A program made the position numbers and the translations under genes. This document shows positions 26,861-40,993 of a stretch of 42,461 nt of DNA, one piece after another. The first letter of the stretch is position 1; each line of letters begins with the position of its first letter. Location of the stretch: NCBI GenBank assembly GCA_900752535.1, contig CAADVV010000370.1, positions 1 to 42,461 on the forward strand. Reading direction: 5' to 3'. This DNA is from Bacteroidales bacterium. GTDB taxonomy: Bacteria; Bacteroidota; Bacteroidia; Bacteroidales; Muribaculaceae. The notes beneath the pieces were generated by a model that searched no databases, had not been told where the DNA came from, and saw only the letters and a program-made list of their open reading frames with translations.

Positions 26861-27060
26861 TTATTTTTCCGCAAAGGTATCCGGCAGTTCCAATCCTGCC
26901 AATGCCGGCTGCGCTGCGAGTGAGGCGTAAAAATCTTCCTCTCCGTTGTCGAGCGTATTTTTTCGCTTCAGCCTTGTCTGATTGTCCCTGCCACCTTCAA
27001 GGGGCAGAAAAATAATCCCTGCGGTCGCAAACAGGCCGAACAGAGGGAAACAAACAAAAC
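26861..27060 (+). repeat. Leader element L1 (divergent copy), upstream of the methylase-helicase gene
   Basis: 5' box TTTTTCCGCAAAGGT and 3' box CCGAACAGAGGGAAAC. GCAAAG-to-GGG distance is 174 nt. Ends 16 nt before the ATG at 27076. Confidence 0.6.
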
Positions 27061-27075
27061 AAACAAGGTTAGGTT

Positions 27076-30000
27076 ATGAGTTACAACAAATTGAAATCAC
27101 TGGTGGCAAACGTGGAAGCCATTGCAACGGCAATGAAAATCCGTATCGACGACAGGCAAGCCACCGACGAAGAGAAAGAGGTATTATCCCGATATTCCGG
27201 TTTCGGGGGTATTAAAGACGTGTTGAGCATAGGAACGGAACGCACTGCCAACGATGATGTGGCCGAGCATATCCACAGGTTGCAAGACTTGATAGAAGCA
27301 TATCCCTATTACGACGACGCCATGCGGCAAGCCGTCATCGACAGTATAAAATCCTCTGTCCTGACCGCTTTTTACACGCCGAAATTCCTCATAGACGCAG
27401 TAGCCCGGCAGATACACGCCACATTCAAGGATAACAGCCTGCAAATGCGCACGTTCCTCGAACCCAGTGCCGGGATAGGCGGTTTTCTGCCCGTCGCCAT
27501 GCCTGACACCCGCAGCTACGCCTTTGAAAAAGATTGCCTTACGGGACTTATCCTGTCGTTTCTGCATGATAAGACGACCACGGTAACGGCAGGTTTCGAG
27601 ACGATAGCCGACCAGCATCTGGAGCACGGGAGCTTCGATGTTATCGCCTCGAATATCCCGTTCGGCAATTTCCGGGTGTTCGACGCGGAAATGTGGAAGA
27701 AAGGCGGCATGTACGAACAGTCAGCCAAGACCATACACAACTACTTTTTTGTCAAGGCAATGGAACTGTTGAACGAGGGCGGACTGCTGGCGTTCGTTGC
27801 GCCGAGAGGAATTGCCGACACGCCGGGCAACAAGTTCGTGCGCGAGTACCTCGTCAATCATGCCGACCTCATAACGGCCTTACGGCTGCCCGATACCCTT
27901 TTCATGCAGACGAGCGGCATAGAGGTAGGGAGCGACCTCCTGATATTCCAGAAACACAGCCGCAAGGCGACGCTCTCGTTACGGGAGAAGATGTTTTTGC
28001 AGGTTTCCAAGGAAAAGGCCGACACGGCGGGAACGACAACCGACTATGCGAATAAAATCTTTACCCTCCCCAAGACCGCCCTTGCCACGGACAGCCGCAT
28101 TGCGCTGAACCAGTTCGGAAAGTACGTCCGCAAATACCAGTGGTTAGGCGATGAAAATGCCATGTCCCAATACCTTTCCGCACTGCTCAAATACGACTTC
28201 GACCGCTATTTTCGCAAAGCTCTTTTCGCCAGCCACGGCCAAGACAACGCCCCCGTGCAGATGTCCCTTTTCGGCGAGCCGCAGACGGCCAAAGGCATAC
28301 GTGCCTACACGGAGAACATGGAAGCATGGATAAAGAACGGCGCAATGGTCGTTTTCGAGGGGCAGGTAGGTACGCTCCGGTTCCGCAAGTCGAGCCGTTA
28401 CACGGAGACAGCCGTCGATTTCGTACCCGTGGACGAGGGCAAGGTAAACACGGACAGGGCCGCCGACTATTTCCCCATACGCAAGGCGTATTTCGAGCTG
28501 TCCGGCAGGGAACGGGAAGAACAAAAGGAGTGCCCGGAGCTGCGTAAACAACTCAACGCCCTATACGACGCTTTTGTTGCCAAATGGGGATTTTTCCACG
28601 ACAACGACAACAAAGAGTTTATCATGCTCGACAGCCTCGGTACGGAGGTGTTCACGATAGAAATGCAGGTCGGCAGGGACATCTTCAAAGCCGATGTTAT
28701 GCGTGAACCAGTCGCTTTCAAGAAGATAGACACCGCCGTAACGCTGTCCCCCGTGGAAGCCTTGGCAAGCAGCCTGAACTTTTACGGCAAGGTCGATATG
28801 GGCTACATGGCACAAGCCACGAACAAGGAGGAAGAAGAAATCATCGAAGCCCTGCAAGGGGAAATCTTCTACAATCCGGCCAGCGCAGAATGGGAGCACA
28901 AAGGGAAGTTCCTCGCCGGAAACGTCATAGCCAAGCAGCAAGAAACGCTATCCTTTCTCCCGGATCTCGCCGGAAAGGAGAAAGAATGGGCCGAAGCGTC
29001 CGCAAAGGCACTGGAGAACACCATACCCGAACCGATACCCTATGAAGAACTCGACATCAACATGGGCGAGCGGTGGATAGATACGAAGCTGTACGCCGAT
29101 TTCGCCTCCGAACTCTTCGGAGTGGGTGCGGATGTGATGTATTTCGACGTGAACGACACCTACCTGATTCGGCTGCAGGGATATTCACCCGTGGCATACA
29201 ATACCTATTCCGTGCGCAACTACAACGGCGAGGATTTGTTTGTACACGCCCTGCACGATACCGTTCCCGAAATAACGAGAGAGGAATATCGGAACGGCAG
29301 CAAAGTACGTGTGCCGGACGAGGAAGCCATGCAGGAGGCCGCCGCCAAGATACAGGAAATCAGAGAACGTTTCAACCAGTGGCTCGACAACGAGCCACTG
29401 GAAGGCCGGGACGAACTGGTAAGGACATACAACGAGCGTTTCAACTGTTACGTGCGTCCGCACTACGACGGCTCGGCGCAGACATTCCCCGGCCTCTCTT
29501 TCGAGCAGTTCCCGTACAAAGAACTTTATCCCTCACAGAAAGACGCTATCTGGATGATAAAGCAGAACGGCGGCGGTATCTGCTGGCACGAGGTCGGTAC
29601 GGGCAAGACGATGATAATGTGCGTGGCCGCCTACGAAATGAAACGTCTCGGACTGGTGCAGAAACCCCTCATTATCGGGCTGAAAGCTAACGTGCACGAG
29701 ATTGCCGACACGTTCCGAAAGGCATACCCCGCAGCCAAGGTGCTCTATCCGGGCAAGGAAGATTTCACCCCTGCCAATCGCAAAGAGGTGTTTTCAAAAA
29801 TCAAGAACAACAACTGGGACTGCATTATCCTGACACACGACCAGTTTAGCAAGATTCCGCAGTCCGAAGAAACCATGTACGACATATTCTCGGAAGAACT
29901 GGCCGACGTGGAGCACAGCCTCGAAGTGTTGGAGCAGTCCACCATGCGCTACCGGAGCGGCAGGATGCAGAAAGGACTGGAAACCCGGAAACAAAACCTT

Positions 30001-40608: not shown

Positions 40609-40634
40609 GCGTACCGATAACACAGTCGGTGCGC
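40609..40634 (+). terminator. Hairpin terminator candidate
   Basis: GCGTACCGA / TCGGTGCGC stem with one G-T pair, followed by a T-rich tract. Confidence 0.4.
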
Positions 40635-40790
40635 TATCTCCTTTGTCTTTATCGCCCGCCTTCGTCCTTTTATAGTCAGCCTCCCGAATACCCCGCCACC
40701 ACCTGTTTCCTTTTATAATTGCATTCTTTCCCTTTTGTAGCGGTATGAACCGCCTGTTCTTCCCATCCGGCTTTTCCGTCCCTCACCGCA

Positions 40791-40993
40791 CGGGTTTTAT
40801 CCGATGCGAAAGTCGGACGTCGCGCTTGATTCGCCGGCTTGAAGTGCACTTCTTGCAAATTCTTCCTTCCCAAATGAAGCGTAATTGGCAAGAAGAGCCG
40901 TCGTATGAAGCCGTGCCGACGACCGTGCATTGCATCTGTAAAACCTCGAAGCGATTCCGAAGGAAAGGAATCGAAAAAAGGGAAATAAATAAT
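40791..40993 (+). repeat. Leader element L7 (core copy)
   Basis: Same element as L3-L5 but with compensatory stem changes. Box spacing 174 nt. Ends 17 nt before the ATG at 41011. Confidence 0.85.

Follow-up and report, generated by a model that had tools for sequence, protein, structure and literature searches.

Single-strand promoters allow the anti-defence and establishment genes of plasmids to be expressed within minutes of entry, and to our knowledge they have been documented so far only as sigma-70-type promoters in Proteobacteria (E. coli-type plasmids). The sso signals of rolling-circle plasmids and ICEBs1 (ssoA, ssoU) are also orientation-specific ssDNA hairpins, of about 150-300 nt, at which host RNA polymerase finds a pseudo-promoter; their product is a short primer, they number one or two per replicon, they are unlinked to gene starts, and they carry the RSB and CS-6 motifs. 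Transfer of genes for resistance, polysaccharide use and type VI secretion by Bacteroidales ICEs is very frequent in the human gut.

In plasmid F the stem-loops Frpo1 and Frpo2 precede ssb and psiB; they are active on ssDNA and off once the DNA is double-stranded (PMC9849209; PMC11541004). Published searches for new single-strand promoters used TTGACA and TATAAT (PMC11541004), and so could not have found the Bacteroidales elements described here. In the pLS20 family of Bacillus, repeated, structured, GC-richer noncoding sequences (EGeRS1 and EGeRS2) lie directly upstream of establishment and anti-defence operons, as the Bacteroidales elements do; EGeRS1 is 325-500 nt long, branched, on the non-template transferred strand and, according to its authors, highly unlikely to be a single-strand promoter, and EGeRS2 is an ordinary repressed promoter (PMC8708921). 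The Bacteroidales element, in contrast, forms just one hairpin, and its strand bias favours the template strand.

We read these elements as Bacteroidales counterparts, though not homologues, of the Frpo single-strand promoters, a reading to which we assign a probability of roughly 0.45, with both the promoter activity and the identity of the transferred strand being inferred. Like Frpo and the ssi elements (F, ColIb-P9), they are noncoding, occur several times in each conjugative element, precede ssb and other early genes in the same orientation, and can form on the template strand a stem-loop that is long and imperfect. In Frpo the stem presents a primary-sigma promoter sequence; here it carries a -7-like box that is only a partial match and whose recognition is inferred. 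Second-strand synthesis switches Frpo off and is predicted to do the same here, and a toxin-antitoxin pair lies between copies (flmAB in F; hipAB here, between E7 and an eighth copy just outside the window). The Bacteroidales elements differ in belonging to another phylum, in having no sequence similarity to Frpo, ssiD or ssiE (distant blastn against PLSDB), in presenting a TAnnTTTG-like box in an internal loop rather than reconstituted -35 and -10 hexamers, in lacking a -33 element at the canonical spacing, in their far greater number (7-8 copies per ICE, nearly one per gene), and in their unexplained invariant apical motifs.

Hairpin elements and their strand bias

The window, that is, the whole stretch of 42,461 nt that was analysed, had been reported in a preliminary description to contain seven copies of a noncoding element, all on the plus strand, and a profile HMM recovered every one of them (E-values 1e-62 to 1.7e-31). 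The mutual similarity of four core copies was confirmed (83-89% identity across about 120-195 nt), and the recomputed interval between GCAAAG and the GGG of the 3' box (174, 179, 175, 173, 175, 222 and 174 nt) agrees exactly with the earlier count; from that GGG to the ATG there are 31-63 nt in the seven window copies. Other details had to be amended. The spacer between TTTTyC and GCAAAG, given as 0-2 nt, is 4 nt in the core copies; GCAAAG, said to be common to all copies, reads GCGAAAG in the copy at 40791 and GGGTAAA in that at 34061; the next ATG after the copy at 37111 is at 37337; and the extent of about 200 nt, correct as to position, was too short, as the left end of each element lies about 25-40 nt further left. 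Each window copy is a single long imperfect hairpin of 207-267 nt, which had gone unseen, and both of the boxes described earlier lie near its base. The copies are listed below by the strand on which the hairpin and the box are read.

26825..27054, minus strand: E1, divergent (family 4), hairpin 26825-27051; -7-like box TACCTTTGC at 26871-26879 (minus), 3' box at 27037-27054; nhmmer E=5.6e-41; DNA fold -48.6 kcal/mol (minus) vs -44.1 (plus); upstream of the methylase-helicase gene
32258..32481, minus strand: E2, divergent (family 6), hairpin 32258-32464; box CAACTTTGC at 32293-32301 (minus), 3' box at 32464-32481; fold -35.5 kcal/mol (minus) vs -29.2 (plus); upstream of the sigma-like gene
34024..34260, minus strand: E3, core (family 9), hairpin 34024-34249, covariance model 246 bits; box GACCTTTGC with its TTT unpaired at 34076-34084 (minus), 3' box at 34243-34260
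34921..35147, minus strand: E4, core, hairpin 34921-35139, covariance model 253.6 bits; box TACCTTTGC with its TTT unpaired at 34965-34973 (minus), 3' box at 35130-35147; upstream of ssb
37082..37312, minus strand: E5, core, hairpin 37082-37309, covariance model 279.7 bits; box GACCTTTGC at 37128-37136 (minus), 3' box at 37295-37312; upstream of the 83-aa gene and the ParB-like gene
39722..39998, minus strand: E6, divergent (family 7) with longer arms, hairpin 39722-39988; box TACCTTTGC at 39767-39775 (minus), 3' box at 39981-39998; fold -57.9 kcal/mol (minus) vs -48.7 (plus); upstream of the DUF4313 gene
40760..40989, minus strand: E7, core, hairpin 40760-40984, covariance model 234.3 bits; box GACTTTCGC at 40806-40814 (minus), 3' box at 40972-40989; upstream of the 158-aa gene

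The hairpin is supported by covariation, which we evaluated on 65 distinct sequences (other structure statistics refer to 57 representatives below 90% identity). In these alignments 95.5% of cells are paired, and compensatory (both-sided) changes are found in 26 of 47 pairs, compared with 15.3±1.7 in shuffles; none of 500 shuffles reached the observed covariation, and slid controls gave 4-10 pairs. Together with the indels, this covariation bears out the earlier inference that the element is noncoding and conserved at the nucleotide level, and is not a translated extension. The earlier view that it is no named motif also holds: Rfam gave no match at the gathering threshold for the whole window and none at E<=1 for the elements. 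No features of an IS, a MITE or attC were detected, and when the element was compared by distant blastn with PLSDB (72,556 plasmids, F and IncI included) only six records matched, all Bacteroidales.

The fold is better on the minus strand, which is the template strand of the genes. The mean folding z-score is -4.1 on that strand and -3.2 on the plus strand; the minus strand is the more stable in 44 of the 57 representatives, and the difference in fold energy (minus-strand value less plus-strand value) is -4.63 kcal/mol, compared with -1.39 in dinucleotide shuffles (Wilcoxon p=7e-7; such p-values are optimistic because the sequences are phylogenetically related). The advantage has the same sign in families 4, 1, 7, 6 and 9, is small in the largest of them (family 9, an excess of -1.6 kcal/mol) and is absent in three small families. 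A better fold on the template strand argues for folded DNA rather than mRNA. The invariant bases lie in bulges and loops of the fold; the most invariant, A.TAC.CT and AGGAAGA, are at the apex, and both are left unexplained by a single-strand promoter.

These observations bear on whether the element might instead work as RNA, as a structured 5' leader or an intercistronic mRNA element for termination, stability or translation, in the manner of EGeRS1 of pLS20 (whose mechanism is unresolved). An RNA element could account for the location directly 5' of ORFs, for the A-rich 3' box before the ATG and for the folding of the plus strand also, and EGeRS1 already exemplifies structured repeats that stand before establishment genes. 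An RNA should, however, tolerate G·U on its own strand, and G·T on the plus strand is the minority: 12 isolated mismatches are G·T on the plus strand and 32 on the minus, the G·T cells number 53 and 143, respectively, in the model alignment, and another count gave 44 and 109. The plus strand also folds worse after control for composition, there is no gene-strand promoter upstream of the hairpins, strong stem-loops divide the hairpins from the upstream genes, and Rfam offers no match; we thus consider an RNA function unlikely.

Genes behind the elements and the box that points into them

Across 53 related Bacteroidales loci we counted 175 non-overlapping copies (1-8 per 20-kb locus, 7 in the window), all 175 co-oriented with the genes, so that the position just 5' of genes and the shared orientation first noticed in the window hold throughout the family. 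An ORF of at least 45 aa with an ATG start begins 20-70 nt downstream (median 35 nt) in 169 of the 170 copies that have a 3' box. Sub-families of the element track the family of the downstream gene, from which we conclude that each element is passed on together with its gene as a unit; the methylase-helicase gene family, for example, always stands behind a family-4 element, and ssb is preceded by family 9 in 35 cases and by family 4 in 8. Copies inside one ICE diverged anciently and keep synteny; they are not recent insertions. The genes of the window, with the stem-loops that follow them, are as follows.

27076..32052, plus strand: unit 1, gene for an N6-methylase and SNF2-type helicase (MhgA-like), 1658 aa; Pfam N6_Mtase, Helicase_C, ResIII
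32077..32111, plus strand: terminator-like stem-loop after the methylase-helicase gene; 15-bp stem, tail CTTTTTC
32505-33029, plus strand: unit 2, probable ECF-like sigma factor, 174 aa; weak sigma-70/ECF HMM matches
33061-33471, plus strand: unit 2, 136-aa protein
33481..33528, plus strand: strong stem-loop after unit 2; -38.2 kcal/mol, z -6.7
34287..34733, plus strand: unit 3, gene for a 148-aa protein with no family match
34766..34809, plus strand: stem-loop after unit 3; -23.7 kcal/mol, z -4.2
35201..35614, plus strand: unit 4, gene for a single-strand DNA-binding protein (ssb); Pfam SSB 2.6e-14
35827..35834, plus strand: for contrast, an ordinary gene-strand -7 box, TAACTTTG(C), before parA (35859)
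36880..36922, plus strand: stem-loop, then U6, after the ParA-RHH operon; -28.3 kcal/mol, z -5.3
37337..39396, plus strand: unit 5, genes for an 83-aa protein (phrog_11458) and a 584-aa ParB-N/HTH protein
39408..39435, plus strand: stem-loop after the ParB-like gene; -17.3 kcal/mol, z -4.3
40034..40549, plus strand: unit 6, gene for a DUF4313 protein
40604..40639, plus strand: terminator-like stem-loop after the DUF4313 gene; 15-bp stem
41011..41487, plus strand: unit 7, gene for a 158-aa protein with no family match

In the window a strong stem-loop stands behind each upstream stop codon, and the units are thereby insulated from one another. DUF2958 and a toxin-antitoxin pair also belong to the gene context, and the set as a whole (ssb, ParB-like, orphan methylase-helicase, DUF4313, DUF2958, toxin-antitoxin) is typical of establishment or leading regions. 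The 158-aa gene of unit 7 is very common across gut assemblies, and one gene of the array is found in more than 37,000 assembly blocks. For the 174-aa sigma-like protein, the AF2 model has a pLDDT of 75.5 and the best Foldseek matches are ECF sigma factors, with E-values of only 0.05-1. The gene parA has no hairpin element; it lies behind an AT-rich region of TAGTAT-type repeats, and its ordinary promoter in this ICE uses TAACTTTGC.

Read on the minus strand, the 5' box of the preliminary description becomes nAnnTT(T/C)GC, which resembles the -7 element of Bacteroides promoters, of consensus TAnnTTTG, for which a -33 motif is not always detectable (PMC7366714). The minus-strand form is present in all 116 unique copies; 72% of the representatives fit nAnnTTTG but only 33% fit TAnnTTTG exactly, and TAnnTTTG occurs on the minus strand of 20 of 57 representatives vs 2 of 57 on the plus (gene) strand. 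The box is on the correct arm, points into the downstream gene and falls within an internal loop, with an unpaired probability of 0.44-0.65 across A..TTY and of 0.01 across the next GC. Inspection of the element alignment revealed no -33 TTTG at the canonical spacing of 19-21 nt.

We propose that the hairpins before these genes probably act as promoters that work only on single-stranded DNA, recognition by RNA polymerase being inferred. When the minus strand is single-stranded, most likely while it enters a recipient as the transferred strand (itself an inference), about 220 nt would fold into the long imperfect hairpin. The gene-proximal arm is continuous with the template of the gene, so the distal arm acts as the non-template strand, and near the hairpin base this arm would present nAnnTT(T/C)GC, a variant of the sigma-A -7 element of Bacteroides, with its A and TT(T/C) in the predicted internal loop and the next GC paired. 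Host RNA polymerase is inferred to start about 7 nt beyond the box and to exit the hairpin into the gene; the putative start sites are near 27011, 32436, 34208, 35095, 37260, 39945 and 40939, and the predicted 5' UTRs, of roughly 65-105 nt, would include the A-rich 3' box. Synthesis of the complementary strand would remove the hairpin, and as the gene-proximal arm lacks TTT there is no -7 box on the gene strand, so that the genes are proposed to fall silent once double-stranded. Those under such control would include ssb and the ParB-like, methylase-helicase and sigma-like genes as well as genes for small unknown proteins, and the maintenance gene parA would rely on its ordinary double-strand promoter instead.

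Much of this evidence, structural and strand-related, would serve equally well if the hairpins were ssi/sso-type priming signals for complementary-strand synthesis, at which host RNA polymerase or an ICE primase makes a primer and not an mRNA, their position before genes being merely intergenic. Toprim/DnaG-like primases are encoded by the ICE family, several copies along a strand would hasten its conversion to dsDNA, and Frpo itself is described as both promoter and primer source, to judge from a title cited in PMC11541004. A merely intergenic position is hard to reconcile, however, with the tight distance to the ATG when that between the upstream stop codon and the element varies from 188 to 553 nt (window coordinates), with the co-inheritance of element sub-families and downstream genes, or with genes that lack any other promoter and are preceded by terminator-like stem-loops. 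Sso signals resemble the elements in being orientation-specific hairpins on ssDNA, but CS-6 (TAGCGT), their hallmark, is present in only 2 of 57 representatives, and seven copies in the window contrast with the one or two of sso replicons. Priming in place of promotion therefore appears improbable to us; the two functions are not mutually exclusive.

The transferred strand and the remaining explanations

In the single-strand promoter reading the minus strand is inferred to be the one transferred, and here the analogies are unfavourable. No relaxase or oriT was located for the ICE of the window. A MobV relaxase gene is present in three related loci, where its orientation is that of the array, and in pMV158, the MOBV prototype, it is the coding strand that is transferred (PMC5863519); by analogy the non-template strand would be transferred in those three loci, which counts against our best reading. 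Both the tra operon and the coupling-protein gene are oriented convergently with the array, and by F-type logic, in which tra genes are templated by the transferred strand, this also points to the opposite (plus) strand. The comparable repeated structured sequences before establishment genes in the pLS20 family go with a non-template transferred strand (PMC8708921). The GC skew at 4-fold sites favours the minus strand but is confounded.

The minus-strand bias and the analogies for plus-strand transfer would be reconciled if a hairpin promoter on the template strand fired in the donor, or in the rolling-circle excised ICE, on the retained strand, so that the genes are switched on by transfer itself and their products may be translocated. 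We know of no precedent for a retained-strand hairpin promoter that fires in the donor. It is true that F donors accumulate ssDNA (PMC9849209) and that translocation into recipients is reported for SSB, ParA and ParB of an F-like plasmid (PMC8406263). The retained strand, however, is normally copied at once from the nick 3'-OH and is only briefly single-stranded, the long-lived single strand is the displaced one, and the functions of SSB and the methylase are most needed in the recipient, so that we regard firing in the donor as unlikely.

The apical motifs and the orientation of the box can also be viewed without any single-stranded intermediate, if the element is a dsDNA operator or cruciform bound by an ICE regulator and the minus-strand box an ordinary weak promoter for antisense or divergent transcripts that silence the upstream gene. 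The invariant apical half-sites AATTACTCTT and AAGGAAGAATT do form an imperfect palindrome, the box is plausible as a leftward dsDNA promoter, and the ICE encodes an RHH protein as well as ParB-like and sigma-like proteins. Covariation over about 200 nt is nevertheless unnecessary for a protein operator, a cruciform predicts no strand bias although one is seen, and within the fold the invariant bases occupy bulges and loops; this is quite improbable. Like these elements, attC sites of integrons are imperfect hairpins between co-oriented genes; they are recognised as folded single strands, with strand-defining extrahelical bases. Finally, a selfish or recombinational repeat, either MITE-like or a folded site like integron attC that delimits gene cassettes, is suggested by the array of co-oriented small genes with structured repeats between them and by the exchange at elements that ssb behind two element families suggests, but is very improbable given a single orientation only before genes, ancient and syntenic divergence of the copies, lineages stably linked to particular genes, a size about twice that of attC, the R''(RYYYAAC) and R'(GTTRRRY) boxes in 0 of 57 representatives (either strand), no integron integrase or transposase among the ORFs scanned, and no matches outside Bacteroidales ICE-like DNA.

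Implications for Bacteroidales ICEs

A wider picture, which we offer only tentatively and hold to be somewhat doubtful, is that gut Bacteroidales ICEs and mobilisable elements, type VI secretion ICEs included, have their own independently evolved family of ssDNA promoters, in which a hairpin of ~220 nt with a pre-melted sigma-A -7 element stands before nearly every establishment gene; the ECF-like sigma factor from one of the units may then read the apical AGGAAGA / A.TAC.CT, which would make a two-step early programme.

On that wider picture zygotic induction from ssDNA would be a solution reached convergently across phyla, and not a peculiarity of enterobacterial plasmids. Even under another mechanism, the 175 copies represent a new conserved element, a DNA structure that covaries and is strand-biased. 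If the single-strand promoter reading is true, the early genes of these ICEs would have a defined and easily mutated cis element. The elements would provide a test of the unusual Bacteroidetes sigma-A reading pre-melted DNA, and parts for transient, entry-triggered expression in Bacteroides engineering. Because most of the downstream genes are of unknown function, the elements would also offer a means of recognising establishment and anti-defence genes in this phylum.

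The hairpin element and the units it precedes

The window belongs to an integrative conjugative element (ICE) of Bacteroidales; cargo genes occupy its left part together with Toprim-like and DUF4099 genes. When the seven co-oriented copies of the preliminary description (E1 to E7 in coordinate order, all on the plus strand) are made into a profile, it recovers exactly those copies at the same places (E 1e-62 to 1.7e-31); two other matches in the window are weaker, lie on the reverse strand, overlap two of the seven copies, and are palindromic self-matches of the hairpin. Identity among the four core copies (E3, E4, E5 and E7) is 83-89%. 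The distances given from GCAAAG to the GGG of the 3' box (174, 179, 175, 173, 175, 222 and 174 nt) were reproduced exactly from the coordinates. Three details required correction: the internal spacer of the 5' box, given as 0-2 nt, is 4 nt in the core copies; GCAAAG, said to occur in every copy, is GCGAAAG in the copy at 40791 and GGGTAAA in that at 34061; and the elements start 25-40 nt further left than had been described. The motif remains unnamed, in that a search of Rfam returned no match at either the gathering threshold or a looser one.

Each copy in the window folds as one long imperfect hairpin, 207-267 nt in length and containing 73-99 base pairs. The 5' box lies in the left arm near the hairpin base, and the 3' box lies on the right side, at the base or just outside it, 31-63 nt 5' of the ATG. 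The most conserved sequence of the element is the apex, and the invariant blocks, read on the minus strand, are TTTCCCT, TGC, A.TAC.CT, AGGAAGA and A..TT.GC (alignment of 56 sequences with <90% identity). The units of the array and its neighboring features are as follows (window coordinates).

27076-32052, plus strand: 1658-aa N6-methylase/SNF2 helicase, behind E1; resembles mhgA
32505-33029, plus strand: 174-aa protein, behind E2
33061-33471, plus strand: 136-aa protein, next after the 174-aa protein
Behind E3 to E7 in order, plus strand: 148-aa protein; SSB; 83-aa protein then ParB-like protein; DUF4313 protein; 158-aa protein
35640-35834: AT-rich region upstream of parA, with numerous repeats of the TAGTAT/TAGGATA type plus an ordinary gene-strand -7 box (TAACTTTGC)
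41552-42461, strand opposite to the array: hipA-hipB toxin-antitoxin pair (10696-12662 in L055, a locus of the window's ICE lineage), which interrupts the array between E7 and an eighth element
About 43455-43672 in window-equivalent coordinates, just past the window end: the eighth element

The right flank is taken from contigs with an identical 158-aa gene: hipAB is followed by the eighth element and by small genes, beyond which the coupling protein and the tra genes are encoded on the opposite strand; a related annotated type VI secretion ICE of P. distasonis has the same layout. The placement of hipAB recalls that of flmAB between Frpo1 and Frpo2 of F, which has been proposed to guard against deletions arising from recombination of the repeats. 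The only unit of the array without a hairpin element is the ParA-RHH pair, for which the AT-rich region in front probably serves as partition centromere or as operator. In the type VI secretion ICEs of the GA1 group, mhgA has been discussed as a possible exclusion factor against a second ICE (PMC8102008); in one relative a group II intron splits the methylase-helicase gene (L059, 10930-18372).

A strong stem-loop ends every unit in the window, within about 60 nt of the stop codon, which means that every downstream gene requires a separate start signal. A consensus terminator scan as a whole is not enriched (19 found, 20.2 expected); insulation rests only on the individually strong stem-loops, and we discarded a terminator count in upstream regions (45/118) for want of a control.

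Copies in related loci

Through the SSB protein we collected 53 loci from genomes of Bacteroides, Phocaeicola, Parabacteroides, the Prevotella group, Muribaculaceae and others; in these loci iterated nhmmer finds 175 non-overlapping copies (116 of them unique, with 57 representatives at <90% identity). All 175 are on the gene strand, and of the 170 that bear a 3' box, 169 have an ATG open reading frame of at least 45 aa beginning 20-70 nt further on, so that the co-orientation and the position 5' of genes reported for the window extend to its relatives. The copies form nine sub-families, and these correspond to the family of the downstream gene (the methylase-helicase is always behind family 4, DUF4313 behind 7 or 3, the sigma-like gene behind 6, and DUF2958 behind 1), indicating that element and gene are inherited together, which is not the behavior of a mobile repeat. 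Sequence searches found no similarity to plasmids outside Bacteroidales. The FopS small RNA family of Bacteroides was also set aside, being tied to polysaccharide utilization loci and not to ICEs.

Two further observations concern the distribution and surroundings of the element. Human faecal virome contigs of 4-20 kb, unannotated and labeled 'Bacteriophage sp.' (MT836705.1, MT836017.1, MT835734.1 and others), hold one to three copies at up to 95.6% identity, and are probably ICE fragments from virus-like-particle preparations that were deposited as phage. In addition, every hairpin is preceded by about 170 nt in which the gene strand is rich in pyrimidines and carries the strand-specific motif TTCC(C/T)TTT(T)ATA, at the following places in the window and at the same position in the 53 related loci.

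26575-26824, 32053-32257, 33472-34023, 34734-34920, 36876-37081, 39397-39721 and 40550-40759, gene strand: pyrimidine-rich upstream regions

A count over 117 unique upstream regions gives the core [CT]CC[CT]TT 302 gene-strand occurrences, or 2.6 per region (background 0.33), and 23 on the opposite strand. This motif is complementary to AAAGGGA of the 3' box, and so could supply alternative pairing partners at the hairpin base.

The folded strand and its promoter-like box

RNAalifold returned no structure on the mixed 56-sequence MAFFT alignment because of indels between sub-families, and we relied instead on folds within each family and on a covariance model built from 16 core-family sequences, to which 65 distinct sequences were aligned (the alignment being rebuilt after reverse-strand palindromic matches had been filtered out). 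Against dinucleotide shuffles, the mean z-score of the minus-strand fold is -4.1, with 93% below -2. In the covariance-model alignment 95.5% of cells are paired, and both-sided changes occur in 26 of 47 pairs, compared with 15.3±1.7 when columns are shuffled (0 of 500 shuffles reach the observed value) and with 4-10 for slid partners; at several pairs three or four Watson-Crick types alternate.

A hairpin is nearly symmetric between the strands, but a G·T pair on one strand is an A·C mismatch on the other. Among isolated 1x1 mismatches, 32 read as G·T on the minus strand and 12 on the plus strand (an alignment-free count; binomial p=0.004), and G·T cells number 143 versus 53 and 109 versus 44, minus versus plus, in two model alignments. 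The minus strand is the more stable in 44 of the 57 representatives, with a minus-plus difference of -4.63 kcal/mol versus -1.39 when these sequences are shuffled (Wilcoxon p=7e-7). The bias has the same sign in five sub-families (11/11, 6/6, 3/3, 2/2 and 21/30) and is absent in three small ones. The selected structure, or the mutation pattern of a strand exposed as single-stranded DNA (ssDNA), therefore belongs to the gene-template strand, a result that favors folded DNA over an mRNA leader. At fourfold degenerate sites in the coding regions of the window, L055 and L060 (a P. distasonis ICE related to the window), the minus strand is G-rich and C-poor, alike in the plus-coded genes of the array and the minus-coded genes (tra and the left module), an asymmetry of the whole ICE that fits an ssDNA-exposed strand; chromosomal replication through an ICE of fixed orientation could yield the same pattern, and because of this confounding we place little weight on the skew.

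On the minus strand the 5' box reads nAnnTT(T/C)GC in all 116 unique copies; 72% of representatives have nAnnTTTG and 33% the exact TAnnTTTG, the sequence that the primary sigma factor of Bacteroides uses as its -7 element (the accompanying -33 motif is weaker, and undetectable in Flavobacterium; PMC7366714). The gene-proximal arm of the minus-strand hairpin runs on into the template of the gene, so the distal arm, read 5' to 3' from apex to base, is a surrogate non-template strand, and it is on this arm that the box sits, directed out of the hairpin toward the gene. The TT(T/C) is unpaired in the folds because the opposite arm reads GGTA-GC; the unpaired probability is 0.44-0.65 across A..TTY, with its maximum at the invariant A, and 0.01 across the GC that follows. 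Because the proximal arm lacks TTT, the double-stranded gene strand has no -7 box, and TAnnTTTG is found on the plus strand in 2 of the 57 representatives and on the minus strand in 20. The G of the box pairs 72-113 nt 5' of the ATG, from which we infer start sites about 65-105 nt upstream of the ATG, near 27011, 32436, 34208, 35095, 37260, 39945 and 40939 for E1 to E7 in order.

The 174-aa protein behind E2 has weak, sub-threshold matches to sigma-70/ECF HMMs, and a PDB sequence search gave chance matches only. An AF2 model built on 18 homologues (pLDDT 75.5; a single-sequence AlphaFold model, at pLDDT 41, was useless) has as its top PDB fold matches nearly all ECF sigma factors (AlgU, sigma-E, SigL, SigK and SigW), at E of only 0.05-1. 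The 174-aa protein is probably a divergent ECF-like sigma factor; that it might read part of the elements is speculation, and the 136-aa protein could be its partner. The tra operon of L060 contains, directly before the coupling-protein gene, a gene (33275-34012) whose product has an RNA polymerase alpha C-terminal domain (Pfam 28 bits, cut-off 23.8); the window's ICE lineage encodes a non-homologous protein at this position (L055, 17899-18387).

A putative single-strand promoter and the transferred strand

On the best-supported reading the element would act as a single-strand DNA promoter, comparable to the Frpo elements of F and ColIb-P9 and active only while the minus strand is single-stranded; we give this reading a probability of roughly 0.45, and both initiation by polymerase and the identity of the transferred strand are inferred. 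In F and ColIb-P9, stem-loops that lie in front of ssb, psiB and ardA reconstitute promoter boxes and give early, transient expression from the incoming strand, which second-strand synthesis silences (PMC9849209; PMC11541004). The window element would work most like a promoter of this type, yet it lies outside that sequence family.

The transferred strand is where this reading is weakest. The relaxase and oriT of the window's ICE were not found among all large open reading frames of the window (Pfam and NCBIfam), in the right flank or in annotated relatives. In three relatives a MobV relaxase gene lies inside the array; one locus has it 10 kb downstream of ssb, and the other two have it about 7 kb upstream.

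L058, 28124-29581, co-oriented with the array: MobV gene
L031, 1123-2571, co-oriented with the array: MobV gene
L037, 2412-3791, co-oriented with the array: MobV gene

Conserved blocks upstream of the MobV gene (GGGCTTGCCCG, GAGCCTAATACCCC and GCAGCAAGCTG) may be its oriT, and the nicked strand cannot be assigned from them. In the MOBV prototype pMV158 the coding strand is the transferred strand (PMC5863519), which by analogy would speak against transfer of the template strand. The array also faces a converging tra operon, an arrangement that under F-type logic would again make the coding strand of the array the one transferred. In pLS20, the comparable EGeRS1 repeats lie on a non-template transferred strand (PMC8708921), a comparison that likewise points against the template. 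Because of these three analogies we hold our confidence below one half and also considered a donor-side explanation; the analogies span distant systems, and the strand bias is evidence observed within the elements themselves.

The published search for Frpo-like sequences relied on sigma-70 hexamers, in a paper that does not mention Bacteroidetes (PMC11541004), and our literature searches found no paper linking single-strand promoters or zygotic induction with Bacteroides. The element is real, widespread, strongly structured and strand-biased DNA, and we infer, as to its activity, that it controls, or is the place of initiation at, nearly every establishment-type gene of these ICEs.
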